Source: Escherichia coli (GTDB taxonomy: Bacteria > Pseudomonadota > Gammaproteobacteria > Enterobacterales > Enterobacteriaceae). From it: a stretch of DNA of 64,000 nt. A program made the position numbers and the translations under genes. Position 1 is the first letter of the stretch. Each line of letters opens with the position of its first letter. The DNA is taken from NCBI RefSeq assembly GCF_024223415.1, contig NZ_CP100500.1; one strand, 5' to 3'. This document shows, piece by piece, positions 4,276 to 50,520 of this stretch. Under the pieces are notes generated by a model, which made no database searches, was not told the origin of the DNA, and saw nothing but the letters and a program-made list of their open reading frames with translations.

Positions 4276-4291
4276 TTTACGGAGTTATCAC

Positions 4292-4747: not shown

Positions 4748-4750
4748 GCA

Positions 4751-8433: not shown

Positions 8434-8434
8434 C

Positions 8435-8971
8435 ATGTTACGCGATAATTTTATTCACTATTTTCAGCAATGGCGTGAACGCCAGTTAAGCCGTGGCGAA
8501 CACTGGCTGGCACAACACCTGGCGGGGCGTTCGCCGCGTGAAAAGGGCATGTTACTGGCAGCGGTGGTGTTCCTGTTTAGCGTCGGATATTACGTCCTCA
8601 TCTGGCAGCCGTTGAGCGAACGGATAGAACAACAGGAGACGATGTTGCAGCAGCTGGTGGCAATGAACACCCGACTGAAGAACGCCGCGCCGGATATTAT
8701 TGCAGCGCGAAAATCTGCCACAACAACGCCTGCGCAGGTATCGCGGGTCATCAGCGATAGTGCTTCTGCGCACTCAGTGGTTATCAAGCGGATAGCCGAG
8801 CGCGGGGAGAATATTCAGGTCTGGATAGAACCTGTGGTGTTTAATGATCTGCTGATCTGGTTAAACGCACTGGATGAAAAATATGCGCTGCGGGTAACAC
8901 AAATTGATGTCAGTGCTGCTGAGAAGCTTGGGATGGTGAATGTGCAGCGGCTGGAGTTTGGACGGGGGTAA
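8435..8971 (+). CDS. gspM: Type II secretion protein GspM
   Basis: 178 aa, N-terminal TM (LLAAVVFLFSVGYYVLIW), last gene of operon. Confidence 0.78.
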   Translation: MLRDNFIHYFQQWRERQLSRGEHWLAQHLAGRSPREKGMLLAAVVFLFSVGYYVLIWQPLSERIEQQETMLQQLVAMNTRLKNAAPDIIAARKSATTTPAQVSRVISDSASAHSVVIKRIAERGENIQVWIEPVVFNDLLIWLNALDEKYALRVTQIDVSAAEKLGMVNVQRLEFGRG

Positions 8972-17498: not shown

Positions 17499-17509
17499 TC
17501 TTCTTCCCC

Positions 17510-21024: not shown

Positions 21025-23352
21025 TTATCCTTTGAGTTCTTGTGCAATTTCCAGGTCAACGTAAATATCATCGTCATCATCAAGCACCGGGGCGTCAACC
21101 TGTTCGAAAGACCAGTCATTAATTGCTTCAATCGCGCCGCTTAGCATCAAATTAAACTGCTGGCATAGCTCAGCGACTTCGTTTCGCGCCCAGCGTTCTT
21201 TTTCCTGCAAACGTTGGTAAAGTTGATGATGTGCTTCATCAAGACCTGCGCCAGCGTGTGGCGGGATCTCCGCTGGGGATTCGTCTGCGGGTTCATCTTC
21301 GGTGAAGATGGTGTTCAGTAACTGGCGTACGTCCGTTGTGTCGGATTCATGACGGGCAAGGATCCGTTCATCAAGAGAAAACGCGCCGCTCGTCGCTGAT
21401 GGGGTTTGTAACGTAGCTGTCGGAGTTGTTTCTGCGGTTGACAGTCGGTGGATATCGCTGGTAACGGCACTGCTGTCCAGACCGAGGCTGGCGTAGATTT
21501 TTTCCAGTTGTTTGATTTCAGCCGGATCGATTTTTCCATCTGCGCAGGCGACGCTGATAATCACGTTGCCAATAGTGGATTTATCTTTATCGCTGAGTTG
21601 CTCAATTTTACCTTTCAGACCAGCCTGATTTGCAGGCGTATTGAGCCGCCAGGTGAGGTAGGCGTGCAGCGAACGTTTTTCTGTTGGCGACAGCGCATCG
21701 TTATGATTAATCGTTTTCTCCAGCGCGGCCTGTTCAGCAACATCCACGCGCTTGTCCATTTGTGCAATCATGGCACCCAACCGAAGCGCCACAGAGACTG
21801 ACGTAAATTCCGCCGACGGTACGTAGAATTCCGCATGCCCTTCAGGAAATAAAACAAGATGACCTTCTGGATCCGGTCTGACAAGGTGATAGCGCATATC
21901 CGGCGCAATGCCGTAGCCTGCTCGCCGGGCGAAATTTTGCATCAGCTCGGCTTCTTTCTTATTAATCTTATCCGGTACAGGCATACCCAGTCTGGCCCAG
22001 AAATCAGCCACTGTCGCCAGTCCTGAATGTTCACGGATTTTCTCATCTGCCCAGTGTTTAAATTCAGCAAATAGACGTTCTGCATCTTCGGTCAGTATTT
22101 CATCGGGAAGCAGCATGATGGCGGCGACATCACTTGGTGAGGCATCTTTTTTACCGAGATAGCGACTGTAGGCATCCAGCGCGTTGATACAGGATTCTGC
22201 AACAGAAATTAATTTCTGAACTGGGGCTTTTAAAACGCTGGGATCGGGAAGATCCATCTGTTTTTTTACCTGAAGTTCCCGAAGCGTACCACTGGCGGGG
22301 GTATAGCTTAAATACAACCGTGTTTTATTGGGTTTGACGACAATACCGTCACCGTATTTTTGAGTATAACGCTGTTTGAATAATGCGGAAAATTCAGCAT
22401 GACATCGACGGGCAGGCGTGCGCAGGGTGTAATCAGGAAAATAGTATATCCATGCCAGTGCCAGAGCGGCACAAATAGGTTGTCCTTTATCGACCACAGT
22501 CGCTAGATTTAATCTGAACAGTAATGAACTCCTCGATGAGAAATATTCGTTTTCGGTATATATAGAAAGCAACTTCGGTCGGAGAACGATCATCATTTCC
22601 AGCAACTGCGTTGCATAATGCCGGAAGGAACCGCTTGCCTGAAATACGGTTCTCAGGCGCGATATCTCTTCGAATAATGCTTTGAATTCATCGTCAGAAA
22701 TGGCTTCTTGTGTGCCATCGGCCAGTACGCGGCGTTCTAGACCGTAAAAATAGATAAAAACATAGCCAACGGGGCAGCTCGCATCGCTGCGATCGCTTGC
22801 CAGCCAGTCAAGATAGGCGCCACGGCAGCGAGGGGAGAGTGTGGCAAAGCTGGGCCAGTATCCCAGTGACTCATCATAATAATGCCGTGAACCAGGCTCG
22901 ATGGGAAAAGCGTCATTAACCAGCGAAGCGTCGGAGTCATCGTTATAAAGATATCCATATTCTCCTGATGAATGTGTTTTTAACCGCCCGCCGAAATAAA
23001 AATAACCGTGATTAATGACGACATTTTGAATGGTGATGCTTTCTCCCGGTTTGACCCATCGCGCTGGAGTGGTATTGCTACGGGCGGCGTTTTCTCGTGA
23101 CGGCTGGCGGCTGGTGCTGTATTCAACCGTCTGCCCGTTCACAAAAGTAAAGGTTGCCAGTTCGTCATCATCGGAGGCCTGAGAATGCATATTTGTCATG
23201 CTGTTATCTGGCTTATTGAGAGATTTCTGTCGAGATGAATGATTTATTTTGGTGATGATTTTGTTGTTTACTCTGGGGGGCGGCGATTTTTTCTTTTTGG
23301 AAAACAGAAGCCAGATAACCGCCAGCATAATAACAAATATCCAGAAGCCCAT
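21025..23352 (-). CDS. Membrane-anchored TerB-domain protein (775 aa); SngA-like
   Basis: N-terminal TM helix (GFWIFVIMLAVIWLLF) followed by lysine run; C-terminal segment VIISVACADGKIDPAEIKQLEKIYASLGLD resembles TerB-type motif. Confidence 0.55.
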   Translation of the reverse strand: MGFWIFVIMLAVIWLLFSKKKKSPPPRVNNKIITKINHSSRQKSLNKPDNSMTNMHSQASDDDELATFTFVNGQTVEYSTSRQPSRENAARSNTTPARWVKPGESITIQNVVINHGYFYFGGRLKTHSSGEYGYLYNDDSDASLVNDAFPIEPGSRHYYDESLGYWPSFATLSPRCRGAYLDWLASDRSDASCPVGYVFIYFYGLERRVLADGTQEAISDDEFKALFEEISRLRTVFQASGSFRHYATQLLEMMIVLRPKLLSIYTENEYFSSRSSLLFRLNLATVVDKGQPICAALALAWIYYFPDYTLRTPARRCHAEFSALFKQRYTQKYGDGIVVKPNKTRLYLSYTPASGTLRELQVKKQMDLPDPSVLKAPVQKLISVAESCINALDAYSRYLGKKDASPSDVAAIMLLPDEILTEDAERLFAEFKHWADEKIREHSGLATVADFWARLGMPVPDKINKKEAELMQNFARRAGYGIAPDMRYHLVRPDPEGHLVLFPEGHAEFYVPSAEFTSVSVALRLGAMIAQMDKRVDVAEQAALEKTINHNDALSPTEKRSLHAYLTWRLNTPANQAGLKGKIEQLSDKDKSTIGNVIISVACADGKIDPAEIKQLEKIYASLGLDSSAVTSDIHRLSTAETTPTATLQTPSATSGAFSLDERILARHESDTTDVRQLLNTIFTEDEPADESPAEIPPHAGAGLDEAHHQLYQRLQEKERWARNEVAELCQQFNLMLSGAIEAINDWSFEQVDAPVLDDDDDIYVDLEIAQELKG

Positions 23353-23535: not shown

Positions 23536-24603
23536 TTATACCTCTGAATCACGCATAAAACGATTGATTTCATCTTGCGCATGACGAAGACGATCGGCAA
23601 TGTCAGCAAATCTGTCAGGCTGATGAAAGAACATTCCCCCTTCCACCGCCGTTTGATGATCCCCGGCGATCGCTGCGAACCGTTCAGCATCGTCAGGCAA
23701 CAGTTGCAGGTTTCCGACAATCACCTGAGTAAAATCCACACCCGGCACAGACCAGCGACGTTGCTTCATCTCGACCACATTGCGCATGGCTTCCAGCGTT
23801 TCATAGGGGCTGGCAAAATGATTACTCAGCAGACAATCCACATCATACCAATGGCGTGCCAGTCGGGCCGGATTTGGCGCTTTGGTTTGCGTGCAGAACT
23901 GGTGCAGCGCCGTCAGCTTTTCCCAAAGAATATAACCGGTGTCATAAGCGTTTACGGTCGCGGTGGGTAACTGGAGTGTATCCATGCCTGCGATCCCGGA
24001 CAGATAGCTTACAACAGGCATCAGATCGGTTGGCTTGCCACGATTTCGTCCGCCAAATTCCAGCAGAATATGATCGCGCTGATAGGCCATACTGTCTTCT
24101 TTCACCCGTGGGAAATAGATATCGACTTTTTCGCCACCACTGTCGGGTTCCATTTTTGCTTCAAGGCCCGGAATTTCATAAGTCTGAAAGCGTTGGTTTA
24201 ACCGTTCTGCCAGCGCGTTTGTCCATTCTGTTAAGCGCTCTTGCTGCTGCTCTCTGAACCGGCGATTCTGGCTGTTATTTAGCGTGCTTTGCTCCCATGC
24301 CTGCTGTTCTTCCTCTTCTGAGTGGCCTGCCAGATCGGCCCAGTGAACAGAAAGATCGATATCTTCAGAAAAACGCTCAATCACGTTCCAGCATTTGCTT
24401 AACGCCGTTCCACCTTTAAACGCGACAGATAAACCTCCCAGCAGCTCCTCATTAAAAAGTAACCGAAGGATCTCCGTTACCCAGAGATCCTTTTCCAGAA
24501 AGCTGGCTCCCAGCCCGGAGGGATGCTGCTGCGCCGCGTAAGAGAGGATTTCCTGAAGCTCGCGACGTTGTGATGCGCTCCGGTAGTAATCAAAAATGTC
24601 CAT
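23536..24603 (-). CDS. AbiEii-family nucleotidyltransferase toxin (ORF track start 24642; ATG at 24603 overlaps antitoxin stop)
   Basis: FKGGTALSKCWNVIERFSEDIDLSV motif characteristic of AbiEii/DUF1814 nucleotidyltransferases; ATGA overlap with upstream gene. Confidence 0.78.
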   Translation of the reverse strand: MDIFDYYRSASQRRELQEILSYAAQQHPSGLGASFLEKDLWVTEILRLLFNEELLGGLSVAFKGGTALSKCWNVIERFSEDIDLSVHWADLAGHSEEEEQQAWEQSTLNNSQNRRFREQQQERLTEWTNALAERLNQRFQTYEIPGLEAKMEPDSGGEKVDIYFPRVKEDSMAYQRDHILLEFGGRNRGKPTDLMPVVSYLSGIAGMDTLQLPTATVNAYDTGYILWEKLTALHQFCTQTKAPNPARLARHWYDVDCLLSNHFASPYETLEAMRNVVEMKQRRWSVPGVDFTQVIVGNLQLLPDDAERFAAIAGDHQTAVEGGMFFHQPDRFADIADRLRHAQDEINRFMRDSEV

Positions 24604-25262
24604 CAGAGCGCCTTTTGCAACGTTATCAGCTGCGAGCGCCACGCGTGAAGCGCAGGCTCATTCATCAACTTTCCGGCAATCTGCCGTGCTTTAGCGGACG
24701 GGATGCTCAGCCGATGAAAAGCATTCTTCAGCGTTTCCAATGGGGTATGTTGCTGATCCAGACTCAGCAAACCGCGCATCAGCTCTCCTTCAGGCCGGTT
24801 CAGCCAACGTAACCGACTTGCTGATTTATGCTGGATCCGTACCCGCTCATTGCCGACGCGGAATTCTCGCGTAGGGCCGTTTGACCAGTAGATGCGTTTA
24901 ACTGGCGCCTGCGTTTGCAGCCCCAGCCGGTAAGCGGCTTCCAGCCCCTGAAGGGTGATTTTGTAACCACGCTCTTTTGCCCATGCGGCGGCAACGGCAT
25001 TGGCGCTGGCAACAACGTTAACAGAGGGGATGTTTTTCAACGGCTTTGGCCGGGAGTAGAAACCGCGTTCAACCCGGACCAGCAGGCCTTCTTTGACCAG
25101 ACGGCTCATTGCCTGTTGTACCGACGCACGGCTTCCCAGCGAGTAAAACCCGCTGATGGAAAAGGGGATGCCACGCTTCATGCGGTGAACCCGCTGGCGG
25201 GCCAGAGCGGCAACAGACATTGATTCTCCTGTACTGACGTTTTCATTGATATGTATTTTCAT
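24603..25262 (-). CDS. AbiEi-like antitoxin / transcriptional regulator (type IV TA)
   Basis: 219 aa immediately upstream of and overlapping AbiEii; N-terminal wHTH-like region ...SRLVKEGLLVRVERGFYSRP. Confidence 0.65.
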   Translation of the reverse strand: MKIHINENVSTGESMSVAALARQRVHRMKRGIPFSISGFYSLGSRASVQQAMSRLVKEGLLVRVERGFYSRPKPLKNIPSVNVVASANAVAAAWAKERGYKITLQGLEAAYRLGLQTQAPVKRIYWSNGPTREFRVGNERVRIQHKSASRLRWLNRPEGELMRGLLSLDQQHTPLETLKNAFHRLSIPSAKARQIAGKLMNEPALHAWRSQLITLQKAL

Positions 25263-27614: not shown

Positions 27615-29132
27615 TTAACAACAGAAGAGGACCATCACCCCGGGATTAACCGTTAGCAGTTCGGCAAAGAGCGCATGTGCTGGCACACGTGCTCCCAGCG
27701 ACCAAAACGGAAACGCAGATACTGGTGAACCAGCACAGTTTTCTGTTTCATACCGGGCTCCTTTCTTTCGACGCCGACAAGCTGTCGGCGAGCCCCGTAC
27801 ACCTCGTACGAGCGTGACTATCGTGTAGAGGCTAAGGATCCCGGGGGATGGCTTCCGCTATCGTAGGCGATTTCATTTGATGATTCAATCTTTGCTTTGG
27901 ATAACAATTAATTGAGATGGTCGTATTTTAGTATTAGCACTGTATGTCTTAGCTATAGTGCTGCTGAAATGACCAATTCGGGAACCGTGATGGTTTCCTG
28001 GAAACTCTCTTGCTTATTTTACGATGCTGGCCGATTATCACAAAACGTTGCTTAAACGCTGATTGGATATGGTGCTTTGTGGCAGTCATTCGCTTGTCTG
28101 ACGTTGCCATGGCTTACATTTGATGTAGCCAATGTAGAAGCCGCTTGGTGAATTGTTCTATGACATGGTCTACTACTTCGTTGTGGAAAATGAAGATGCG
28201 GTACCGGGTATGTACCATTGATGGTGAGAGGCTTATCGACGAATGGACCGTACGATATTGCTTGGCTGGAAAGGTGTGTGAAGCATTGTAGATTTACATT
28301 CACAAAATCGCGAGAAAATCTACAAACAACTCTATTTCCAGAAAAATGAGTTTCCCCTTTCTGCGCCAGAAATAAAGGCGTAATCTCCCTCCTGCACTAT
28401 GTTGTCGTGGACAACTCCCTTGCTTCATGGTCTGCAAGAAGCCCCTGATTTATCAGGATGACCAGCCCTTTCTACCGGTACGACCTCCGCAATACCGGAA
28501 CGCGAAAGCGTTTGAGGCTAAGAGTACATACACATGAACGGCTCCATCGTCATCGCTTAACGGCAACAGCCTTCACCGGCTGAACGGCCTCTCTTTGCCG
28601 GAATTTTCCTGGCCCACTTATACCCTGCTGATAACCAGCGCCTTTTTACATGACGGGCTGCGGCCTGCATTGCCGAAGGCTTTGCTGCCGCGTGACCGTC
28701 ATCCTGCACCAGAGTGTTAATTTTCAGACCCTGCGCCAGACCAGGGCGTCAGTCGCTCACGCGCAGTGAGAGACTGACGCCCGCAGAAATTTCCATCTGC
28801 ACCAGTCATATCAACTGTTCCAGCCACAGGCGAGCTTCTGACGTCGCTTTTCAGCATTTATCTCAACCATTCATTCACAAAAGGAGAACATGAGCCAGTA
28901 CCGGAGGAGGACCACCAGGACGGTCCGGGGGATGACCAGCTCACGCTGGCGGCTGCTCTGAGAGCACAACCGATACCCCGCAAAACCTCAACAGCCGTCG
29001 CCCCGGCGCTCAGGTACTGCTCGCAGCCCCGACAAAAATCAGGGGCTATCGGCCTACGCGCCGGGGAAAGCTGTATCCGTTGTTTGTTGTGGTTTTGTGA
29101 AAATCAGGAGCGAGAGAAGAGGAAAACGTAAA

Positions 29133-30014
29133 ATGGGTATGCTGGAAAGAGAGATGAAAAACCTGGCGCGGCAGGCTGGCGGGTCGCACAAGACTGTCCA
29201 TGACCGTATCGCCATGGCAGGACGTTTCTGCGAACGCCTGATGGAACTGAACGTTCAGATACGCTATGTCCACCATTTAAAGGCGAAGCATATTGAGGCG
29301 TATATTCAGATGCGGCTGGCGCAGGGGATTCAGAAAAATACGCTGCATAACGAAACGGCGGCTATCCGTAAAATCCTGACGCAGGCCGGGCGCGAAAAGC
29401 TGGCGCAGAGTGAACGGATATCGAATAAATCGCTGGGGCTGGCTGGCGTATCCCGCAATGGTACGCGGAAAGCCATCACGCCGGAATATTATCAACAGAT
29501 GGCAGAGGCTGCCCGGCTGAAAGATGCGGGGCTGGCGGCGGCGCTGGAACTGACGCGGCTGATGGGGCTACGCTCTCAGGAGGCAGTACGCTGTTCCGGT
29601 TCGCTGAAAACCTGGCGCGAAGCACTGGAGAAAGGTGATACCCGGCTAACCGTGGTACTCGGTACCAAAGGTGGACGGCCCCGTGACACGATTATTCAGG
29701 ATACTGGCGCAGTTAAACAGGCGCTGGATAAGGCCATCGTGGTGGCAGAACGGCGCAACGGCAGGCTGATTGATGCGGCGAGCCTTAAACAGGCAATGAA
29801 ATACTGGCGCAACCAGACTTTGCGTATGGGGCTGACGGGCAAATACTCCCCGCACTCACTGCGCTACGCCTGGGCGCAGGACGATATCTGCCGGTATCTG
29901 GCGCAGGGGTTCAGCGAAAAAGAAGCGCTGGCGATGGTGGCAATGGACCTAGGGCATGGCGACGGGCGTGGTCGCTGGGTGAAGCAGGTGTATGCACGGA
30001 ATGATGAAGCGTGA
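29133..30014 (+). CDS. Small tyrosine recombinase-like protein (ORF track start 29097 is GTG)
   Basis: C-terminal catalytic-like residues: ...GLRSQE..., TVVLGTKGGRPRD, HSLRYAWAQ (HxLR), MDLGHGDGRGRWVKQVYAR (LGH...Y); SD-like gaggaaaa upstream of ATG 29133. Confidence 0.5.
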   Translation: MGMLEREMKNLARQAGGSHKTVHDRIAMAGRFCERLMELNVQIRYVHHLKAKHIEAYIQMRLAQGIQKNTLHNETAAIRKILTQAGREKLAQSERISNKSLGLAGVSRNGTRKAITPEYYQQMAEAARLKDAGLAAALELTRLMGLRSQEAVRCSGSLKTWREALEKGDTRLTVVLGTKGGRPRDTIIQDTGAVKQALDKAIVVAERRNGRLIDAASLKQAMKYWRNQTLRMGLTGKYSPHSLRYAWAQDDICRYLAQGFSEKEALAMVAMDLGHGDGRGRWVKQVYARNDEA

Positions 30015-30195
30015 TTTTTTGCTGGCGCAGCGAAAGGAAAAAGGCCAAAGGGTAAAGGTGGGTTAAGGGTAACAGCTCCTTACCGGAAAGGGCCAAAGGG
30101 TTGGGACTGGCGCAGATCGACGTCTATCCACGGATATCTGGCGCAAATAAAAAGCAGATCCCTGATGCAGTGGATCTGCTTTCCGGCATTGTCCG

Positions 30196-31502
30196 TTAGC
30201 TGGCGCAGGCCGCCTGAATCTGCCTGTCATACCGATACGGCGGGATAAATTTCTGCCGACAGGCGTCGAGATAATCCGACCACCACTGCATCATCTGTGT
30301 GCGCTCGTCGAGGTGCTCCGCCTTGTGGATATACGCGGCACGAACGTGATTACGCTCCTGATGGCTCATTTGTCGCTCCACGGCGTCTTTTGACCAGCGC
30401 CCGGACTCGATCAGCGCACTACAGGCCATCGTGCGGAAACCGTGACCGCAAACATCTGCCTGTGTGTTGTAGCCCATAACCCGCAGTGCTTTGTTGATGG
30501 TGTTTTCGCTCATCGGCTTACGCGGATCGTGGTCGCCGGGAAACAGTAACTCACTACTGCCGGACAACAGTTTTAACTGTTTGAGTATTGTCACCGCCTG
30601 CGCTGACAACGGCACCAGATGCTGCATCTTCATCTTTGCGCCGCGATTTGAATAACGCACGCCCGGAATCGGCTCCCGCTCCGCCGGGATGGTCCACATT
30701 GCGCCATCCAGATTGATCTCCGTCCAGCGGGCAAAACGTAGCTCGCTGGAACGGATAAAGATCAGCAGATTAAGCTGTACCGCCAGACGGGTTAACAGCC
30801 TGCCGGAATAGCCTTCAATACGCTCCAGCATCTCCGGTATTTTCTCCAGCGGCAGGGCGGGGTAGTGGTTTTTGGGCGGCGGTGCGATAGCCCCGGTCAG
30901 ATCGTTCGCCGGATTGCTGTCGATTATCCCCTCCTGCACCGCGTAACGCATGATTGCCGTGGTGCGCTGCTGAATCCGTGCAGCGGTCTCCAGCGTACCT
31001 TTTCGTTCCGCCACCCGCAGCGGGATCAGCAGATCGGCAGTTTTCAAATCAGAGACCGGAATTTGCCGATCAGTGGAAAAACATGCAGCTCCAGCGAGCG
31101 CAGGACTTTGGCGGCATGGGCTTCATTCCAGCGGATATTGCCCGCTACCCACTTACGGGCGATATCTTCAAAGGTGTTGCCGCTTTTACGTGCAAACTTC
31201 TCCTGCTGTTTTTTCACGCCGGGATCGCTGCCTGCGCTCAATACCGAGCGGGCATCCTCGCGCAGCTTGCGGGCATTTGCCAGAGAAACGGCCGGGTAAG
31301 CACCAAACGCCAGCTTCTTCTCTTTACCGCCGAAGCGGTACTTGAGGTGCCAGAGTTTAGATCCGTTGGGCTTTATCAGCAGGTACAGACCCTGCGCATC
31401 GCTGAGTTTCCAGGATTTATCAAGCGGCTTTGCATTACGGATGGCGGTATCGGTGAGGGACATAGTGGGGCTCCATAGTTTATCGAACCGACGGGCCCCC
31501 AA
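30196..31502 (-). pseudogene. P4-type tyrosine integrase split by a frameshift near 31045-31060
   Basis: N-terminal ORF (31044..31502) ...LKYRFGGKEKKLAFGAYPAVSLANARKLR...VFPLIGK; C-terminal ORF (30196..31047) ...ADLLIPLRVAERKGTLETAARIQQR...HGFRTMACSALIESG...; the two pieces are in different frames. Confidence 0.8.
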
Positions 31503-38174: not shown

Positions 38175-39323
38175 ATGGCTAAAAACAAAGGTATCTGTCG
38201 GAATAAAAAATGCAGCAATCCTGTTTCAGAATTTGATGAGGCAAATGCCCTGAGGTTATGTGATGATCATTATCAGTTATGGAAACGAAATAAAGAGAAC
38301 CGTCGGGTCAGGAATATTTGTCGTATAATCAGTAAATATGACAAAAGTCTGGACCGGGAGATATTTGACAGAGTAATAGATGCTGCAAGAAATCAAACGG
38401 GAAAGAGAATTGTTGAGGACGCAAAAATATTACATCAATTGCGCAATTCAAAGCAAGTAAGAAAAAGTCTTCATAATGGAGTACTCCGGTCACGGGAATG
38501 GCTCAATACACAGGAGTTACTGAGAAGAAAAAATATATCTGTTACAGGTGACTCATTTAAATCTTACATAAAGGATATTGTCAGATTATATTGCTATAAG
38601 TTTCTCTACAGCAGAGAATATCTTAATGAAAACGCATACAAAAAACAATATCAGAGAGTTATTAACCCCAGAGAATTTAATGTTCCGATACTTCAACTTG
38701 AAGTTGCATGGATCAATAATAATTGCCGTTCAAGTGATTCAAGCTCTGATATTATCATCCTTCCCAGGATGATAAGAAGAATGGTTGTATTTAATGATAC
38801 GAAGATAAATAAACAATTAGAGGAAATGTTGGGGGGGATAGCACGAAAAAAAGTCGCAGTAAGGAATAAAGGCGGTCTCTATACCAGAATAAAAAAAGAA
38901 AATGATTTTCGTTCTATGGATAGATTTATGGTGGAAATCGAAAATATCATAAGACCTGAAATATTTCCGACATCAATTTACCCGCCTTTTTCACTTTCAT
39001 TTATCGAGAGAGAATTGCCACTACTGAATCTGGCGCACTCACAGTACAAAAGAGCAATAAGTAAAAAAGTGGCGAATTCAATTTTTTATACTTTGCGAAA
39101 AACTCACGTGGCATTATGGCTGCATCTTGAAATGTTTGCTCTTGTGGCATTCATCAAACTGTATACAGGAAAAGGGTTTGAATTCATGAAAAACATGTGT
39201 GTATTTATAGATTATGATAAAGGGATAATAAAATCCACGCATGAAGAACTGCTGAGTGAAATTAAGTGTAACATTCAGTTGAATTTAAAGGTGAATCCTG
39301 ATAATTTTCCTGAATTAATATAA
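38175..39323 (+). CDS. Hypothetical lysine-rich protein in very AT-rich DNA; N-terminal Cys/His cluster
   Basis: 382-aa ORF, N-terminus MAKNKGICRNKKCSNP...LCDDHYQLW; SD-like ggaag upstream; codon usage clearly foreign. Confidence 0.5.
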   Translation: MAKNKGICRNKKCSNPVSEFDEANALRLCDDHYQLWKRNKENRRVRNICRIISKYDKSLDREIFDRVIDAARNQTGKRIVEDAKILHQLRNSKQVRKSLHNGVLRSREWLNTQELLRRKNISVTGDSFKSYIKDIVRLYCYKFLYSREYLNENAYKKQYQRVINPREFNVPILQLEVAWINNNCRSSDSSSDIIILPRMIRRMVVFNDTKINKQLEEMLGGIARKKVAVRNKGGLYTRIKKENDFRSMDRFMVEIENIIRPEIFPTSIYPPFSLSFIERELPLLNLAHSQYKRAISKKVANSIFYTLRKTHVALWLHLEMFALVAFIKLYTGKGFEFMKNMCVFIDYDKGIIKSTHEELLSEIKCNIQLNLKVNPDNFPELI

Positions 39324-43060: not shown

Positions 43061-44882
43061 CCTCTGGTCAGCCAGCGGACTATCGTCCTTTCCTGACCGA
43101 TTCGTCATTCCATTCTTATTGATTATAACTGGCATTACACCGGTGCCGGCGTGCTTTTCTGTAGATCTGCACCGGTTTAACAAAATTCGACAAGGTTTGA
43201 AGGAGTATTCTGTGCAAATAAGCGAGGCCCTAATTTCAGAACCGGGGAAAATCCAGCGTTTTGTTCAGCAGGCGGTGGACCACTAGCCGCGTCTGCTGGC
43301 AGTCCACTTCACGCTTGATTCGGCTGAAGGGAATATTGACGAGGGGCAGATTCATGCATTCTGTACTGCCTTTTACCGACAGGTGCACGAGCGTATTACT
43401 GAACGTAATCACACGGCCAGCCCATCCTCGCCGGTGGTATTACGCTGGTTGCGGGAACAACATGGAGGAGCAACAATACGATGCCTGTTGCTGTTCAGCC
43501 AGGAGCTTTTCTGCCATCCGCGAGCCAGTGTGACAGTTGATGAAGAATGTTCACAACTGGTGGATTTACTACAACAGACTTGGCAGGTGATAAGCGCTGG
43601 CGGACAATGCCGGGTGGAAAAGCGTTTTCAGGTCGTCCGGGGTGATACATCTGGCCAGTATGTTGCGTTAAAAACAGTCGCATTGTCTCTGGGGTTACCG
43701 GTTGTGATCGCCATTACCCATCGTCCGGTACAGCGCTGTACATTGATTACAGCTCAGTGAATCAGCGCAGTTGTGCAGTCAACGAGGTTTTCTGGCTTTT
43801 CGTCGGTCATTCAGCATCATTAAACGGGTCTCTGCCTCTTTCTGTTCCTGTGGTGTCACTTCCCCGCACGGCTGACCGTTCAGGTTGTAACGGGCGCCAC
43901 CTGCTATTAACGCACGGTAATAGCGCGGAGACTGCACATAAGACGCCACTGCTGCATGTAATGTACCAGCGCCAAACGCCAGTTCTCGGATGGCGATATC
44001 CTGTATCAGGTCGTCAGGTATCCCCACTTTAAGTGGTTTTGTTTTTTTCCCGGTTGAATGACTCAGGCCAGAGTTCCACAAGACGAATAATGCGCTTACG
44101 GTTTTTGCTCTGGCGTTTTGTCATGTCGCCACGGTGTTTTATCAGCAGGTTTCTGTTTATCGTTCAACTGTGGTATCTGGTCACCGGCCTTCATTTTGTA
44201 TGCTGTGTCCGTTTTATTCTGCAGCGGCGTTGCCGGTGATTTACTGAAAATACCCTGCGGTTTACGGTTAATGGTCAGAGTTACCATCAATTTTGTTACC
44301 TCGCGCTGTCAATGGAAGTAGTACCTCATCCGATATCTGAAAATGTTTTCCGGTGGATGTTACAGCGAATTTCATGTAAGACATGTTGTTGTCGGTATTG
44401 TTCAGTACTGTGCGTTGTGAGCGTATTCGTTATCAGACAGAGGGGCAGGGAACAAACGTCAGAGGTTAAGGATATCCGGGAACAAATGGCGTAAACGGAC
44501 ATCTCAGTGCCTGAGAAACAGTACAGGTCAGGCCATCATGGCCTGCAAACAGAGCCCTGGCGACCCCGTGGCCGAAAACGAAACAATAACCCGCGCGCAG
44601 TGCGAGGAATCCGGATGTGAAGCAATCAGCAGGTAATATTAATGGCAGGACCAGCAGGTTCTTTAAACAAACGAACATGCTGTAATTGATATTTTGCTTA
44701 TTGTATTTTCTTTTTAGTTATTAAATTAATTTATTTACGAAAAATTTTCTGCAGATACAGGATGGGAATTCAGGGTGTCATCACGCCTTATGATGACACC
44801 CTTCCCCTGGTTGTGGAAAACCGAAGGATATATCAGGTTCAGCAACAAAATCAGTGAGCTGAAAGATACCAGTCCCCCAGCT

Positions 44883-45902
44883 TCAGCAGCTTTCACGTAA
44901 ACATAAACAGGGCTCAATGAATATCTGATTGCTCCAGTTACCTTCTTTAATTCGTTCCAGCAAAACATTTCCTGCTTCCAGACCAATTTTCCTGTGAGGA
45001 ACGGCCATTGTTGTTAATGATGGTTGGCAAACTTTGCTGACGTCACTGTCACCAAATCCTACTACGGCGAGCTCGTCTGGAACTTTGATCCGTCTTCGTT
45101 GACATTCATAGAGAACACCGCAGGCTAACTCATCTGACACACATACCAGGGCATCCAGTTCCGGCCATGCGAGCAAAAATTCCGGTAGTTGTGATGCTCC
45201 GGTGGAAAAAACAGGTGGCAGAGCAGCGTTAATAACACGGTTGGGAGACATATGATGGCGTAACATAGCTTTATACCATCCCTGTAAATGCTGCTGAAAG
45301 ATCCACTGTTCCTGGTTAGCGCATAGCAAACCGATATTCTGATAACCACGTTGTACCAGCATATCCGTCAGCTCGAACATTGCTGCAACATTATCAATAC
45401 CAATGTTGATATCTATCGGATCAGTACGAATGGCACCGATTTCTATAACAGGAATCGAGGCATTTTTGAGCAAGTGACGCACGGTACTATTATGCTCAAC
45501 ACTAAGCAAAATTGCTGCAGCGATATTAGAAGCCAGCAGGGTTTCCAGCAGTTTTTCTTCTTGTTCCAGACGATGGCGTGACTCAGCCAGGATTATTTGA
45601 TACCCCGCTGGTTGTAGCACATGTTGCAGCCCGGCAAACATTTCCGTGCATCCCGCTTCAGCCAGGTTTGGCACGACCATTGCGATCGTGTGTGAAGATG
45701 CCGATGCCAGTGCGCTTGCAGTGAGGTTGGGCATATACCCTAATTCATTAACTGCGGCTTCAATCTTCTCCCGCAATTTATCTGAAACTTGTTCGGGAGT
45801 GCGTAACGCTCTGGATACAGTCATTGTGCCAACTCCCGCGAGTTGCGCGACATCAGCAATAGTGACTTTACCTGTACTACGACGTTTTCGGGTTATTGCC
45901 AT
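44883..45902 (-). CDS. LacI-family transcriptional regulator
   Basis: N-terminal HTH VTIADVAQLAGVGTMTVSRAL plus periplasmic-binding-like sugar-binding domain; divergent from the PTS operon. Confidence 0.8.
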   Translation of the reverse strand: MAITRKRRSTGKVTIADVAQLAGVGTMTVSRALRTPEQVSDKLREKIEAAVNELGYMPNLTASALASASSHTIAMVVPNLAEAGCTEMFAGLQHVLQPAGYQIILAESRHRLEQEEKLLETLLASNIAAAILLSVEHNSTVRHLLKNASIPVIEIGAIRTDPIDINIGIDNVAAMFELTDMLVQRGYQNIGLLCANQEQWIFQQHLQGWYKAMLRHHMSPNRVINAALPPVFSTGASQLPEFLLAWPELDALVCVSDELACGVLYECQRRRIKVPDELAVVGFGDSDVSKVCQPSLTTMAVPHRKIGLEAGNVLLERIKEGNWSNQIFIEPCLCLRESC

Positions 45903-46153
45903 ACAAAATCCTGCTCAGCGACTACATATGGAGATCTTTTATTACTTATCATCAACGGCTTCCTGCACTGCCAGTAGCAGAGTATACCTCTTAATATCTG
46001 CCATAAGTCTGGATTTAATCAGTGAAATCTATTTTGATAGCGCTATCACAAATTCGAACAATACCTCCTGATAGCGCTATCTTTGTGATATTGATCGCAG
46101 ATATACCGTCGTTACTTGAATACATTCTGGTCATATAAATAAGAAATTAGGGG

Positions 46154-46603
46154 GTGGGAGTGCTTAATATCTGGCTTTCTGATTCAACAATCGCATTACG
46201 AAAGAATGCCGCAACCTGGCAGCAGGCATTAGATATCTGTGCCAGACCGTTACTGGATGCAGAGATAATTACGACGGATTATCTCAGTGCGATAAAGACA
46301 CAACATGAAAAACTGGGGCCTTATTATGTCCTGGCACCCGGGCTGGCCATGCCGCATGCCCGACCAGAAGAAGGGGCAAAAGGATTAGGTTTATCATTAT
46401 TAAAACTTGAAGAAGGTGTCAGTTTTCATACAGAGGAATTTGATCCTGTAGATGTTATCATTTTACTTGCCGCACCAGACAAACACAGTCATATCGAAAT
46501 GATATCTGCACTGGCTGAGTTATTCTCCAGCGAAAAAGATTTACATGAATTGCATCAGGCTTGCAATGTGGAGGAAATAAAAAAGATAATTTCACGGTTC
46601 TGA
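46154..46603 (+). CDS. PTS EIIA component, ascorbate (L-Asc) family
   Basis: ...GPYYVLAPGLAMPHARPEEGAKGLGLSLL... resembles UlaC/SgaA-type EIIA. Confidence 0.72.
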   Translation: MGVLNIWLSDSTIALRKNAATWQQALDICARPLLDAEIITTDYLSAIKTQHEKLGPYYVLAPGLAMPHARPEEGAKGLGLSLLKLEEGVSFHTEEFDPVDVIILLAAPDKHSHIEMISALAELFSSEKDLHELHQACNVEEIKKIISRF

Positions 46604-46681
46604 TTACATTATAAATTCAGTCTTTTCACAACATTGCGCCGTTGCGTGATGGGACTTCTTCAACTTAAAATGGTGAATATA

Positions 46682-46954
46682 ATGAAAATTATGGCTATTT
46701 GTGGCTCAGGGCTTGGTAGTAGTTTTATGGTCGAAATGAATATTAAAAAAGTTCTGAAAAAAATGGATATAGAGGCGGAAGTGGAACATTCCGATCTCTC
46801 ATCAGCAACGCCAGGGGCTGCCGATTTATTTGTGATGGCCAAAGATATTGCTGCCAGTGCCAGCGTACCGGAAAGTCAGTTGGTGGTTATCAACAACATC
46901 ATTGATATTAATGAACTCGAAACGCAACTGCGTAACTGGTTAGCAAAACAATAA
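46682..46954 (+). CDS. PTS EIIB component, ascorbate family (ORF track start 46634)
   Basis: MKIMAICGSGLGSSFM... phosphorylatable Cys motif typical of UlaB-type EIIB. Confidence 0.72.
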   Translation: MKIMAICGSGLGSSFMVEMNIKKVLKKMDIEAEVEHSDLSSATPGAADLFVMAKDIAASASVPESQLVVINNIIDINELETQLRNWLAKQ

Positions 46955-46970
46955 CCTTAATTGAAGCGAG

Positions 46971-48365
46971 GTGGATATGTTTATCCTTGAAACGCTGAAT
47001 TTTGTTGTTGATATACTTAAAGTGCCCGCGATACTGGTCGGCTTGATTGCCTTAATTGGTCTGGTTGCCCAGAAAAAATCTTTTTCAGATGTTGTTAAAG
47101 GTACAATTAAAACTATTCTCGGCTTTATTGTACTGGGCGGTGGTGCCACTGTTTTGGTTGGTTCGTTAAATCCTCTTGGGAGTATGTTTGAACATGCCTT
47201 TAATATTCAGGGCATCATTCCGAATAATGAGGCTATTGTTTCTATTGCGCTGGAAAAATATGGCGCATCGACGGCCCTTATTATGGCATTTGGTATGGTG
47301 GCGAATATTATTGTTGCCCGCTTTACCCGCCTTAAATATATCTTCCTGACCGGACACCACACATTTTACATGGCCTGCATGATTGGTGTGATTCTGACAG
47401 TGGCTGGTTTTGAAGGTATATCACTGGTCTTTACCGGTTCTCTTATTCTGGGACTTGTGATGGCATTTTTCCCGGCATTAGCACAACGCTATATGAAGCG
47501 TATTACGGGGAATGATGACATTGCTTTTGGTCACTTTGGCACTCTGGGATATGTACTTTCTGGCTGGATTGGCAGCGTGTGCGGTAAAGGTTCCCGCTCC
47601 ACCGAAGAGATGAATTTGCCCAAAAATCTGAGCTTCCTGCGCGACAGTTCCATCTCTATTTCTCTTACGATGATGGTGATTTATCTGATCATGGCGATCA
47701 GTGCTGGTCGTGAGTTCGTTGAAAGCCAGTTCAGTGGTGGTCAAAACTACCTTGTCTACGCCATCATAATGGCCATCACCTTCGCTGCTGGTGTATTTAT
47801 TATTCTGCAAGGCGTGCGTTTAATCCTTGCTGAAATAGTTCCGGCATTTACCGGGTTTTCAGAAAAGCTGGTGCCGAATGCCCGTCCGGCCCTCGATTGC
47901 CCGGTTGTGTATCCGTATGCGCCAAACGCAGTGTTAGTTGGTTTCTTGTTTAGCTTTTTTGGCGGTCTGGTAGGGCTATTTTTGTTGGGACAGATGAAAC
48001 TGGTGTTGATTCTTCCGGGTGTCGTTCCTCACTTTTTTACCGGGGCGGCTGCTGGCGTATTTGGTAACGCTACGGGGGGACGTCGTGGCGCAATGATTGG
48101 TGCTTTTGCGAATGGCTTATTGATTACCTTCCTGCCTGTACTGTTATTGCCGGTTCTTGGGGCGATAGGCTTTGCTAATACGACCTTTTCCGATGCAGAT
48201 TTTGGTGCTGTCGGCATCGTCCTCGGAAACCTGGCACGTTATCTCTCACCTTTTGCCATCACCGGACTTGTAGTAGCGCTATTTGTGCTGCTGGTTGCCT
48301 GGAACATTTTCGCCAGTAACAAAATCGCTGCCAAAGCGCAGAAGAAGAGTGGAGCCAAATCATGA
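46971..48365 (+). CDS. PTS EIIC permease, ascorbate family
   Basis: 464 aa polytopic membrane protein; ...VKGTIKTILGFIVLGGGA... and ...ILQGVRLILAEIVPAF... resemble UlaA/SgaT. Confidence 0.82.
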   Translation: MDMFILETLNFVVDILKVPAILVGLIALIGLVAQKKSFSDVVKGTIKTILGFIVLGGGATVLVGSLNPLGSMFEHAFNIQGIIPNNEAIVSIALEKYGASTALIMAFGMVANIIVARFTRLKYIFLTGHHTFYMACMIGVILTVAGFEGISLVFTGSLILGLVMAFFPALAQRYMKRITGNDDIAFGHFGTLGYVLSGWIGSVCGKGSRSTEEMNLPKNLSFLRDSSISISLTMMVIYLIMAISAGREFVESQFSGGQNYLVYAIIMAITFAAGVFIILQGVRLILAEIVPAFTGFSEKLVPNARPALDCPVVYPYAPNAVLVGFLFSFFGGLVGLFLLGQMKLVLILPGVVPHFFTGAAAGVFGNATGGRRGAMIGAFANGLLITFLPVLLLPVLGAIGFANTTFSDADFGAVGIVLGNLARYLSPFAITGLVVALFVLLVAWNIFASNKIAAKAQKKSGAKS

Positions 48366-49192
48366 ATGTTAAAGAATTGACTCAATTTGCACGGGATATA
48401 CGTATCCAGACGCTTAAATCATTAACTCATCTCGGCTTCGGTCATTATGGTGGCAGCATGTCGGTTGTGGAAACGCTGGCAGTGCTTTATGGCGCTGTAA
48501 TGAAAATTGATCCTGCTGCTCCCGACTGGCCTGAGCGTGACTATTTTATCCTGTCCAAAGGACATGCCGGACCTGCTCTCTACAGTACTCTGGCGCTGAA
48601 AGGCTACTTTCCACTGGAAGAATTAAGCACCTTAAATCAGAACGGAACCCGCTTACCAAGTCATCCGGATCGGCTAAAAACGTGTGGTGTTGATAGCACC
48701 ACAGGATCGCTGGGGCAGGGGATATCCATTGCCGGAGGGATGGCGCTGTCGCATAAACTGGCGGGGCGCAAGAATCGGGTTTTTTGTATTGTCGGCGATG
48801 GCGAACTTAATGAAGGCCAATGTTGGGAAGCTTTCCAGTTTATCGCGCATCATCGTTTGAATAACCTCACTGTGTTTGTGGACTGGAACAAACAGCAGCT
48901 TGATGGTCAACTGGATGAAATTATTAATCCATTTGATTTGGAAGGAAAATTCCGGGCTTTCGGTTTTGATGTCGTGACAGTGAAGGGCGATGATATTGAG
49001 GGCTTGTTGAATGTAGTTAAACCTGTCCTGCCAGCTGAGGCCAGACCGAGAGTGGTCATTCTCGATAGCATTAAAGGGCAGGGGGTGCCGTGTCTCGAGC
49101 AACTCAGTAATTCTCATCACTTACGCCTCACAGAAGAGATGAAGGGGACGCTAAACGAAACAATTCGCCAACTGGAGGCTATGCATGATTAA
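48362..49192 (+). CDS. Transketolase, N-terminal (TPP-binding) subunit
   Basis: ...GHYGGSMSVVETLAVLY...SKGHAGPALY...GSLGQGISIAGGMAL... Confidence 0.85.
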   Translation: MNVKELTQFARDIRIQTLKSLTHLGFGHYGGSMSVVETLAVLYGAVMKIDPAAPDWPERDYFILSKGHAGPALYSTLALKGYFPLEELSTLNQNGTRLPSHPDRLKTCGVDSTTGSLGQGISIAGGMALSHKLAGRKNRVFCIVGDGELNEGQCWEAFQFIAHHRLNNLTVFVDWNKQQLDGQLDEIINPFDLEGKFRAFGFDVVTVKGDDIEGLLNVVKPVLPAEARPRVVILDSIKGQGVPCLEQLSNSHHLRLTEEMKGTLNETIRQLEAMHD

Positions 49193-50138
49193 TCTCGCAC
49201 CGGCAGGACAAAAAGACAGCATTGAAATGCGCAAAGTTTATGCAGATTTTATCGCGCAACAGAGTAAAAACGTCAGTTCTGTCATTGCTCTTGAGGCTGA
49301 TTTAATGAGTTCCATGGCAATGGACAGCGTGGCGCAGGATTATCCAGATCACGTCATTAATTGCGGCATTATGGAAGCCAATGTTATCGGCACAGCTGCA
49401 GGGCTGGCCTTAACCGGGCGCAAGCCATTCGTGCATACCTTTACCGCATTTGCCAGTCGTCGCTGTTTTGATCAACTCTTTATGTCGCTTGATTACCAGG
49501 GCGCTAACGTCAAAGTTATAGCTTCTGATGCGGGTGTTGCTGCTTGCCACAATGGCGGAACACATATGTCATTTGAAGATATGGGAATTGTGCGCGGGCT
49601 GGCGCATTCGGTGGTGATGGAGATGACAGATGCCGTAATGTTCAGCGATATCTTGCGTCAACTCGTTGCACTGGAAGGATTTTATTGGATTCGTACCATT
49701 CGGAAGCAAGCAGCGAGTATTTACGCACCAGGTACAACCTTTACAATTGGCAAAGGGCAGGTATTACGTGAAGGTACGGATGTCACCTTAATTGCTAATG
49801 GCATTATGGTGGTGGAAGCCCTGGAGGCCGCACGTCAACTTGAGCTGGCTGGGGTAAGTGTAGCGGTGATTGATATGTTTACGCTCAAACCCGTTGATCG
49901 GATGTTAATTAAAAATTATGCCGAAAAAACAGGACGGATCGTAACATGTGAAAACCATAGTATTCATAATGGATTAGGTTCAGCGGTTGCTGAAGTGCTT
50001 GTAGAAACTTGTCCTGTGCCCATGCGTCGGGTGGGGGTTAAAGAGCGGTATGGCCAGGTTGGAACTCAGGACTTTTTACAGAGAGAGTACGGGTTAACCG
50101 CGCAAGATATTGTGGCGGCAGCCAGAGAGCTATTGTAA
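49185..50138 (+). CDS. Transketolase, C-terminal (pyrimidine-binding) subunit
   Basis: 317 aa, overlaps N-terminal subunit gene; ...IGTAAGLALTGRKPFVHTFTAF... pattern. Confidence 0.85.
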   Translation: MINLAPAGQKDSIEMRKVYADFIAQQSKNVSSVIALEADLMSSMAMDSVAQDYPDHVINCGIMEANVIGTAAGLALTGRKPFVHTFTAFASRRCFDQLFMSLDYQGANVKVIASDAGVAACHNGGTHMSFEDMGIVRGLAHSVVMEMTDAVMFSDILRQLVALEGFYWIRTIRKQAASIYAPGTTFTIGKGQVLREGTDVTLIANGIMVVEALEAARQLELAGVSVAVIDMFTLKPVDRMLIKNYAEKTGRIVTCENHSIHNGLGSAVAEVLVETCPVPMRRVGVKERYGQVGTQDFLQREYGLTAQDIVAAARELL

Positions 50139-50239
50139 TTCATGGAGTTTGTTTACCATTCTGTTTTTCTTAAAAGTGAGTGTCTGTGCGGTCACTAAAC
50201 TCGGTAATAAAGCAGTTCATTGCAGGATAAGAAGCGTTT

Positions 50240-50520
50240 GGTTGTGTCGTTTTACCGTAAGAACCGACCGCCGTATGTAGCCATTAAGCCAGTATTGGTA
50301 ACGTAGGTGCCCACCTTTTCAAACTGGTGGACGCCTGTTATGGAGCAAAAACATTATCCGCAGAACCCCGCAGATCATTTTCAAATGAGTTAAACTTCAA
50401 ATGGTTAAACTGGTTTTGCAACCAGGAGCCTCTGTTGCCCGTATTGCCCGGGAACACGATATCAATGATAACCTCCTGTTCAAATGGCTCAGACTCTGGC
50501 AGAACGTAAGGTAAAGGGAG
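50240..50520 (+). mobile_element. Truncated IS66-family remnant (terminus plus partial tnpA)
   Basis: accgccgtatgtagcc motif shared with the IS66 terminus at ~63490; out-of-frame fragment ...QPGASVARIAREHDINDNLLFKWLRLWQN resembles IS66 TnpA. Confidence 0.5.

Follow-up and report, generated by a model that had tools for sequence, protein, structure and literature searches.

The stretch of Escherichia coli DNA analysed here, called the window below, comprises 64,000 nucleotides (nt) of contig NZ_CP100500.1 (NCBI RefSeq assembly GCF_024223415.1) and contains, at positions 44883-50138, a six-gene cassette encoding a LacI-type regulator, the three enzyme II (EII) proteins of a phosphotransferase system (PTS) and a two-subunit transketolase (TK). 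It is probable, on the basis of sequence comparisons, that this cassette is a complete and functional catabolic operon for a carbohydrate other than L-ascorbate, and the form that an ancestral enterobacterial locus has taken in the Escherichia lineage. The cassette is an old enterobacterial operon and not exotic cargo: it is a fixed chromosomal locus in other Enterobacterales, including the sister species Escherichia marmotae. In E. coli it is cargo of genomic (pathogenicity) islands, as is clear from its patchy occurrence, its association with tRNA genes, the presence of integrase and insertion sequence (IS) genes and its atypical GC content. The RefSeq annotation of the cassette and a passing mention in the genome paper of strain IMT5155 were already available; new here are the putative regulatory elements, the case against ascorbate, the signature of a TK subfamily, evidence that the cassette originated within Escherichia and was relocated to islands, and a remnant of the cassette in about 234 genomes.

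The six open reading frames (ORFs) of the cassette are all intact in the ORF list and lie on the strands given in the initial annotation of this DNA (Table 1). The gene assignments of that annotation are borne out by the Pfam domains: the divergent LacI-type regulator (44883-45902, minus strand) has LacI and Peripla_BP domains; EIIA, EIIB and EIIC of the L-ascorbate PTS family are matched by PF00359, PF02302 and PF03611, respectively, all with scores far over the Pfam gathering cut-offs; and the two-subunit transketolase is recognized by a Transketolase_N domain on one ORF and Transket_pyr and Transketolase_C domains on the next. The ORF spans used for the Pfam searches were 46154-46603 for EIIA, 46634-46954 for EIIB and 46971-48365 for EIIC, and the three start codons have been shifted to 46160, 46682 and 46977, respectively, as given by the RefSeq annotation of 99.9%-identical copies and by orthologue alignments. 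The stop codon of the EIIC gene overlaps the start codon of tktN (ATGA), and tktN and tktC overlap by 8 nt; these overlapping stop and start codons indicate that the translation of EIIC, tktN and tktC is probably coupled. The outer limits of the cassette, 44883 and 50138, are the limits of homology when compared with the Salmonella locus (44882-50113) and the E. marmotae locus (44879-50139). The GC content is 45.8%, versus 49.7% for the window. A terminator-like hairpin is found directly 3' of the stop codon of the regulator gene, just outside the left limit of native-locus homology (44879), and a transposase remnant (at about 50327-50502) lies directly downstream of the cassette.

The PTS genes encode a transporter of the L-ascorbate (L-Asc, TC 4.A.7)/EIIC-GAT family, as is evident from the domains, the phosphorelay residues and the elevator residues. 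The reference phosphorelay residues are His68 of UlaC and Cys9 of UlaB (PMC6048161), which correspond to His66 of EIIA, in the motif LAMPHAR, and to Cys7 of EIIB, in the motif CGSGLGSS. The elevator residues of UlaA (Gly58, Gly286 and Arg288) are all kept in the island EIIC and in five orthologues. The sequence identities with the Ula proteins are 27.5% (global) between EIIC and UlaA, 26.7% between EIIB and UlaB, and 40.8% between EIIA and UlaC, and EIIC is a distant match of the UlaA structure (PDB entry: 4RP8; 177 bits).

Eleven residues of UlaA are in contact with vitamin C (Thr86, Tyr87, His135, Ile136, Gln139, His194, Gln195, Asp314, Ile358, Phe362 and Met410; PMC6048161), and these were mapped by alignment onto the island EIIC and its five orthologues. 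Only four of the eleven (His135, His194, Asp314 and Phe362) are kept in the island EIIC, which by these contact residues is not a UlaA orthologue. Ile358 has become a valine, and the remaining six are replaced (T86N, Y87E, I136H, Q139Y, Q195F and M410T). All five genera share five of these six replacements, the exception being position 410, with an alanine instead of the threonine in Rahnella. This suggests that EIIC combines a UlaA-type machinery with a different, conserved pocket, and the sugar taken up by the cassette is probably not vitamin C (L-ascorbate).

It is improbable that the cassette provides a second uptake system for L-ascorbate or for a close analogue, such as erythorbate or dehydroascorbate, feeding the UlaG, UlaD, UlaE and UlaF enzymes of the host, with an extra transketolase for xylulose-5-phosphate. 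The curated NCBIfam equivalog NF009549 (PRK12996), 'PTS ascorbate transporter subunit IIC', does name EIIC an ascorbate transporter (989.5 bits, with a cut-off of 890), and the fold family of UlaA is shared, as are His135, His194 and Asp314; the name is an annotation by homology only, whereas the six replacements, conserved across five genera apart from the variation in Rahnella, suggest a different ligand, and the low global identities with UlaA and UlaB point the same way. When compared with UlaABC of E. coli (PDB entries: 4RP8, 4RP9 and 5ZOV), the PTS family, the three-protein EII, the His and Cys motifs and the elevator residues are the same, but the gene order is IIA-IIB-IIC instead of IIC-IIB-IIA, and the regulator is of the LacI/GntR-like type instead of the DeoR-type UlaR of K-12. 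The window and the orthologous loci examined contain neither UlaR nor ulaG, ulaD, ulaE or ulaF of the K-12 ula locus, and no lactonase or decarboxylase is linked to the cassette in any of these genomes. The ula2 operon of Streptococcus pneumoniae (ulaR2-IIB-IIC-tktN-tktC; PMC4324149) favours the ascorbate alternative, since this structurally analogous operon, in which a PTS of the Asc family is also coupled directly to a split TK without any further catabolic enzyme, shows a 2-3-fold induction when ascorbate is given. It differs in having the activator UlaR2 and in having no separate EIIA gene in its five genes, and the likeness described here is one of gene organisation.

The transketolase is predicted to be an active enzyme of the split-chain type, with the PP domain carried by one subunit, the Pyr and TKC domains by the other, and with neighbouring genes for the two. 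The best solved relatives are the split-chain TK structures 6YAK for TktN (220 bits, 44% identity) and 6YAJ for TktC (241.6 bits, 40% identity). E. coli TktA, its sequence validated against PDB entry 2R5N, is used as the reference for the residue numbers, and the equivalents of Arg358 and Arg520 were placed via the alignment with 6YAJ and an alignment of 152 sequences. The equivalents of His26, His66, His100, Asp155, Asn185 and His261 are all present in TktN, and the set of residues for thiamine diphosphate (ThDP)/Mg2+ binding and the donor site is complete, including the equivalents of Glu411 and His473. The tail loop of the substrate channel in TktC is non-canonical, being SDAGVAACHNGGTHM instead of TH-x-G...GEDG-xx-HQ. 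Here, His461 is changed into an aspartate, Asp115, Glu468 into a histidine and Asp469 into an asparagine, Asn123, and the equivalents of Arg358, Ser385 and Arg520 are preserved. The canonical sugar-phosphate tail site, with His461 and Asp469, is therefore not present in TktC, in which only the Arg/Ser/Arg part is kept. For the predicted enzyme, this variant tail site lowers the confidence in a strictly canonical specificity, not in TK chemistry.

Of the 150 nearest representatives of 50% clusters in a whole-library search, most have the D...NGGTH(M) form of the loop, and the variant-loop enzymes form a large split-TK subfamily. The genes of distant members occur together with an ABC transporter and an FGGY kinase, or with a polyol dehydrogenase/DeoC, and in one case in a housekeeping-like neighbourhood. 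As a proof of new chemistry the variant loop is weakened by being so common among these 150 and by this one housekeeping-like context; it is suggestive of altered tail recognition, without proving it. The activity of Salmonella TktC is reportedly canonical but 10-100-fold slower, and its expression is said to be influenced by RpoS. Slow, canonical activity of this kind would be compatible with either view of the variant loop.

The experimentally active split TK of Carboxydothermus hydrogenoformans (6YAK/6YAJ; PMC7661550) has the same α2β2 assembly and the same ThDP/metal and donor residues as predicted for the island enzyme, but a canonical loop, THAGLTVGEDGASHQ. In the sulfofructose transketolase SqwGH (PMC11659671), the same His-to-Asp change of the head-group motif is found ('RSFHR' to 'RAFDR'); there the serine is replaced by an alanine, whereas the island enzyme keeps the serine. 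AptAB is the apulose-4-phosphate TK of the D-apiose cluster of E. coli ST131/ST14 (PMC13001218). Both AptAB and SqwGH are two-subunit TKs inside dedicated sugar-catabolic clusters, as is proposed for the cassette, but these are other loci, with kinases or ABC transporters instead of a PTS. Identity with AptAB is rejected: TktN and TktC are 39.4% and 27.9% identical to AptA and AptB of E. coli SE15, respectively, the loop of AptB is different (LNAGASYGPLASTHH), the Arg358 equivalent that is kept in island TktC is missing from it, and the cassette has no kinase gene (aplK). In SE15 (NC_013654.1, 1231-2989), the AptA/AptB genes of the D-apiose cluster are located next to entD. The tkt1 island of strain APEC O1 (avian pathogenic E. 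coli, APEC) is likewise a TK-like gene adjoining a PTS gene on an island linked to extraintestinal pathogenic E. coli (ExPEC) (Li et al. 2012, PMC3349570), and is also rejected as the same element, having one TK gene of full length (about 2 kb) and a glucose-type IIBC, between metE and ysgA. With AptAB and the island cassette, E. coli holds at least two unrelated accessory sugar modules with a split TK, in addition to tkt1.

That the transketolase is the main point of the cassette, as a stress- or stationary-phase isozyme of the pentose-phosphate pathway like Salmonella TktC, with the PTS being incidental or only a sensor, seems very unlikely. It is true that tktB and tktC, the third Salmonella transketolase gene, are similarly regulated in Salmonella (review, PMC12651746), and that some variant-loop subfamily members occur in housekeeping-like contexts. 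The five structural genes, nevertheless, are tightly packed or overlapping and their order is kept in at least five genera, which is hard to understand without a shared function, and the dedicated repressor, with conserved putative operators and a CRP-like site, is typical for a catabolic operon. E. coli, moreover, already has TktA and TktB.

The regulator consists of a LacI-type helix-turn-helix domain (PF00356, 70 bits, residues 14-59) and an effector domain (PF13377 and PF00532). Its nearest curated relatives are the GntR/IdnR LacI-type sugar-acid repressors, without it being a member of these families: its scores are below the cut-offs of all three NCBIfam equivalogs of this type (269.7 bits for GntR, NF052440, with a cut-off of 400; 225.4 bits for IdnR, with a cut-off of 500; and 201.6 bits for the third, with a cut-off of 433). 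The divergent intergenic region is 257 bp long. When the regions of six genomes (E. coli, E. marmotae, Salmonella, a Leclercia-labelled genome, Serratia and Rahnella) are aligned, the mean column identity is 46-55% across genera, except for four conserved elements, being two putative operators, a CRP-like box and a -10-like hexamer (Table 1). The operators O1 and O2 are invariant in all six genomes, and the exact matches of the 10-mer operator core in the window are at O1 and O2 only. The TTTGTG...ATC.CAG columns of the CRP-like box are also invariant in this alignment, and the CRP-like pattern has 2 matches in the window versus 0.36 expected; judging from the consensus, CRP would be the factor that binds here. 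The -10-like hexamer would place the CRP-like box at about -41.5, in agreement with class II promoter geometry, and a repressor bound to the operators, directly upstream, would compete with CRP and RNA polymerase, or would loop the DNA.

In the mechanism that is proposed for the cassette, the LacI-family repressor bound to O1 and O2, beside the CRP-like site, would hold the promoter off when there is no inducer, and in the presence of the inducer and cAMP-CRP the EIIA-EIIB-EIIC-tktN-tktC transcript would be made. The phosphoryl group would then pass from phosphoenolpyruvate, via EI and HPr of the host, to His66 of EIIA, to Cys7 of EIIB and to the substrate during its UlaA-like elevator import. 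The phosphorylated product would be the direct donor or acceptor for an α2β2 ThDP/Mg2+ split transketolase; as no other enzyme is encoded, the products would have to be ordinary intermediates of the pentose-phosphate pathway or glycolysis. A catabolic function is also in agreement with the gene clusters of the distant relatives having an ABC transporter, an FGGY kinase and a split TK, which share this logic of transport, phosphorylation and transketolase.

In E. marmotae, Salmonella, Serratia fonticola, Rahnella and a Leclercia-labelled genome, the same six genes are found with identical order and orientation, flanked by yfcD, a Nudix gene, on one side and by (yfcC)-pta-ackA on the other. The Salmonella counterpart is, we presume, STM2340-STM2345 of strain LT2 (STM14_2885-2890 of strain 14028s), with two TK genes encoding TktC. 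In addition to the six genes, the Salmonella tktC locus shares the putative operators, the CRP-like box and the variant TK loop with the cassette; it differs in being chromosomal, between yfcD and yfcC-pta, whereas the E. coli copy is on tRNA-associated islands. The island EIIC is 92% identical to a very abundant protein of Salmonella enterica; with the proteins of Serratia, Rahnella, Gibbsiella, Hafnia, Pantoea and other genera, the identity is 84-88%. The amino acid identities with the Salmonella orthologues are 94.4% for EIIB, 92.4% for EIIC, 88.8% for TktN, 87.9% for the regulator, 86.1% for TktC and 72.1% for EIIA. At the nucleotide level the identity of the window with the Salmonella locus is 75.9%, over 44882-50113, and by this value and the saturated synonymous sites a recent transfer from Salmonella is rejected. 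The proportion of differing sites is 0.67-0.83 for synonymous sites (pS, saturated) and 0.04-0.17 for nonsynonymous sites (pN), with dN/dS being about 0.02-0.03 where computable, which indicates strong purifying selection and an old split between the island and Salmonella cassettes.

The closest relative found is the native locus of E. marmotae (GCA_036177625.1), in which a cassette of identical architecture occupies the ancestral chromosomal site, with the order yfcD/cassette/yfcC-pta-ackA and no island. The island and E. marmotae cassettes are 91.9% identical in nucleotide sequence over 44879-50139 and 91.5-97.8% identical in amino acid sequence (95.6% for the regulator), and this homology ends 4 nt past the stop codon of the regulator gene and 1 nt past the stop codon of tktC. 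The flanking core genes of E. marmotae are 90.1% and 92.9% identical to those of K-12, in which the site is empty, the gap between yfcC and yfcD being 32 nt. For the island alleles of the regulator and TktN, no relative with more than 90% identity is found outside Escherichia. In the simplest reading, the island allele stems from a copy of the ancestral enterobacterial locus in the Escherichia lineage; the data agree equally well with a different Escherichia lineage, as yet unsampled, being the donor. The ancestral locus would then have gone from the native site of E. coli, to be kept only on mosaic tRNA-associated islands.

The complete cassette is present in 132 of 5,426 complete E. coli genomes (2.4%), with about 99.9% identity; all these copies are chromosomal, and copies of intermediate identity are not seen among the 5,426 genomes. 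A probe for the native-site junction at yfcD has no match in any of them. This supports the island-borne, accessory status that the initial annotation had called probable; the observation named there as refuting it, a cassette that all relatives carry at one and the same core-genome position, is not what is seen for E. coli. The fixed locus on the side of pta-ackA in other Enterobacterales does qualify this interpretation, in the sense that the accessory status is that of the E. coli copy. The mobile-element surroundings noted there are seen as well: apart from the transposase remnant, the window has integrase genes at 29097-31047, part of an IS3 element at 9327-9803 and, upstream of the cassette, modules of the CP4 island type. 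The window starts with a type II secretion cluster ending in yghD, and in K-12 yghD immediately adjoins pheV; judging from this flank, the window is a pheV island, of which the distal end comes first. A search for tRNA genes within the 64 kb finds none, pheV itself being outside the window.

In strain APEC E19035, the same segment is in an island abutting yicL/nlpA. These genes presumably mark the selC neighbourhood. In strain APEC IMT5155, the cassette is on the 94-kb pathogenicity island PAI I5155 beside tRNA-Phe near cadC, where it is mentioned without characterisation (PMC4232414). The island contexts examined are therefore the pheV side here, the selC side in E19035 and tRNA-Phe/cadC in IMT5155. 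The BEN2908 genome paper mentions neither the cassette nor a PTS-TK module in the AGI-3 selC island, and the cassette is not mentioned in the paper on an island of Shiga toxin-producing E. coli negative for the locus of enterocyte effacement. On the two sides of the cassette, there are no direct or inverted repeats of note, and capture by a composite transposon is rejected for this reason.

A further group of about 234 E. coli genomes has kept nothing of the cassette but the final 179 bp of tktC. These stump-only genomes share one deletion end-point (position 5078 of the query), and in strain 13KWH46, the only stump genome examined, the stump adjoins an IS1 pseudogene. In this strain (NZ_CP019250.1, 8252-18077), a region with sul2, aph(3'')-Ib, aph(6)-Id, tet(A) and floR is found within 2 kb after the stump, which makes the same island backbone also a landing pad for resistance genes. 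In one genome, ISVsa5 is inserted inside the cassette. The cassette is probably being eroded in E. coli by the deletion, which is beside IS1 in the genome examined, and by IS insertion, as seen once.

These data also bear on the alternative of a neutral passenger in E. coli, in which the cassette would hitch-hike on a mosaic island, intact by chance and unused; to this we assign a low probability. About 64% of the genomes with the island segment are reduced to the same 179-bp stump, one copy is interrupted by ISVsa5, and the presence in just 2.4% of the complete genomes and the 99.9% identity among the copies, by which selection within E. coli is not measurable, are as expected for such cargo. 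Against this, the six ORFs are full-length with intact active-site residues, the nucleotide and amino acid identities with E. marmotae imply long-term purifying selection on the lineage leading to the island allele, and the cassette recurs on islands at three tRNA loci.

Several points weigh against the preferred reading of a functional operon for a sugar other than ascorbate, in addition to the equivalog name of EIIC and the ascorbate response of ula2. The promoter, CRP-site and operator assignments are predictions, the consensus scans of the intergenic region are overall no better than those of shuffled sequence, and an alternative sigma-70-like pair, TTGATA-17-AACAAT at 46034-46062 (consensus scan), overlaps O1. 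The frequent loss in E. coli, with about 234 stumps versus 132 intact copies and the ISVsa5 insertion, argues for weak selection in this species. The transketolase could act mainly as a pentose-phosphate isozyme instead of in a dedicated catabolic step. Finally, the initial annotation had left the substrate unassigned, and no substrate, inducer or phenotype is named in the literature searched or derivable from the sequence.

For the Salmonella locus tags, this literature consists of incidental mentions that give no substrate, in a plant-colonisation screen, a plasmid-adaptation RNA-seq study and an arabinose-biofilm RNA-seq study. The gene called ulaA_2, for which the last study gives no locus tag, is assumed here to be the orthologue of the cassette EIIC gene. 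In Salmonella biofilms, STM14_2886 (putative transketolase) and ulaA_2 are both 3.5-fold up when a ΔaraE mutant with 40 mM arabinose is compared with the wild type with 5 mM arabinose (PMC8341724). This co-induction is weak evidence, but it fits a GntR/IdnR-like regulator. With such a regulator, and with threonate genes being co-induced in Salmonella, the substrate might come from the diet or from plants, or be a degradation product of ascorbate or pentoses. It is also conceivable, although on balance doubtful, that the remodelled EIIC pocket and the variant TK tail site (with the His461-to-Asp and Asp469-to-Asn changes) together form an undescribed two-step route, in which a sugar or sugar acid would be imported and phosphorylated and then directly cleaved by a TK dedicated to it and of non-canonical specificity; the E. 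coli core would have lost this route, and a minority of APEC/ExPEC-type strains would keep it on islands as a niche-defining trait.

As it stands, the cassette is ordinary accessory metabolism. It is a clean example of a conserved operon that is absent from the native site of a species and yet kept on islands at several tRNA loci, and such a case blurs the boundary between core and accessory genes. The operon is widespread in Enterobacterales, including Salmonella, and the predicted operators, CRP site and remodelled pockets make the question of its substrate testable. Lineage-specific sugar pathways, such as the one for D-apiose in ST131, currently attract attention as factors that may determine the niches of E. 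coli clones that are successful.

Table 1. Features of the cassette, its surroundings and the rest of the 64-kb window.
Feature	Position	Strand	Properties and evidence
LacI-family regulator, 339 aa	44883-45902	-	Pfam LacI and Peripla_BP_3/1; divergent from the PTS genes
PTS EIIA, 147 aa	46160-46603	+	Start GTG; PF00359 (PTS_EIIA_2), 118.8 bits
PTS EIIB, 90 aa	46682-46954	+	Start ATG; PF02302 (PTS_IIB), 61.3 bits
PTS EIIC permease, 462 aa	46977-48365	+	Start ATG; PF03611 (EIIC-GAT), 510.5 bits
TktN, Transketolase_N (PP-domain) subunit, 276 aa	48362-49192	+	PF00456, 159.6 bits
TktC, Transket_pyr and Transketolase_C subunit, 317 aa	49185-50138	+	PF02779 and PF02780
Putative operator O1	46035-46048		TGATAGCGCTATCA; perfect 14-bp palindrome, central CG, LacI-family type
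Putative operator O2	46069-46082		TGATAGCGCTATCT; 13/14 palindromic; O1-O2 centre spacing 34 bp
CRP-like box	46084-46099	+	TGTGATATTGATCGCA; starts 2 nt past the end of O2; consensus-based
-10-like hexamer (TAnnnT)	46121-46126	+	TACATT here, TAAAGT or TAGAGT in orthologues; alignment
Terminator-like hairpin	44857-44882	-	Consensus scan
tktC stump, last 179 bp	49960-50138	+	Query 5078-5256, 98.3% identity
Transposase remnant, partial, frameshifted	50327-50502	+	RefSeq annotation of 99%-identical IMT5155/E19035 regions, moved by coordinate offset
Type II secretion cluster, complete	42-8971	+	gspD, E, F, G, H, J, K, L and GspM-like yghD
743-aa ORF	10555-12786	-	Very large ORF after the Shango genes; ends overlap neighbouring genes
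1583-aa ORF	12783-17534	-	Very large ORF after the Shango genes; ends overlap neighbouring genes
SngC (DEAD helicase)	17510-19708	-	Shango-type defence; PADLOC, 325-908 bits for the three Sng proteins
SngB (BrxC/D-like ATPase)	19705-21021	-	Shango-type defence
SngA (TerB-N/TerB-C)	21025-23352	-	Shango-type defence
AbiEi/AbiEii toxin-antitoxin (abortive infection) pair	23536-25262	-	PADLOC, AbiEii 640 bits, AbiEi 155 bits
AAA_13 ATPase, 731 aa	25419-27614	+	PADLOC candidate defence family PDC-S06, 804 bits
Two integrase-family ORFs	29097-31047	+ and -	305-aa Integrase_1 type (+), 283-aa phage-integrase type (-)
YadA-like trimeric autotransporter adhesin, 429 aa	51312-52601	+	Three near-identical repeats of about 37 aa
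N-acetylmannosamine-6-phosphate 2-epimerase homologue	54345-55034	-	Second accessory sugar cassette (54345-57580)
Glucose/maltose-type PTS IIC(B)	55034-56626	-	Second accessory sugar cassette
RpiR/MurR regulator	56756-57580	+	Second accessory sugar cassette; divergent

The type II secretion cluster at the start of the window is the chromosomal flank on the pheV side, of which K-12 keeps only the yghD, yghE and yghF remnants. The defence genes that follow are of the Shango and AbiE types, and the AAA_13 ATPase completes this block, which extends between the junction at yghD and the genes for the integrases. The 1583-aa and 743-aa ORFs after the Shango genes have no Pfam match at E<=1e-8 and no PADLOC match at E<=1e-5, and may be uncharacterised accessory or independent defence genes. 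The presence of two integrase genes in the middle of the island suggests that two or more integrative elements are joined here, in tandem or as a mosaic, being the defence block and a CP4-like/metabolic block.

Between 38000 and 41000, an AT-rich stretch is found, with a GC content of 34-39% versus about 50% elsewhere and strong changes in AT-skew. The 382-aa ORF in this stretch (38175-39323) is a frameshifted hypothetical gene in the annotation of related genomes. Downstream of the cassette, before the second accessory sugar cassette, is the gene of the YadA-like adhesin, in which a (GCTCAG)n repeat (51435-51488) encodes (AQ)9 in the signal/leader region. The length of this adhesin is 429 residues here, 452 in IMT5155 and 397 in E19035, and these differences may be due to repeat-mediated variation.

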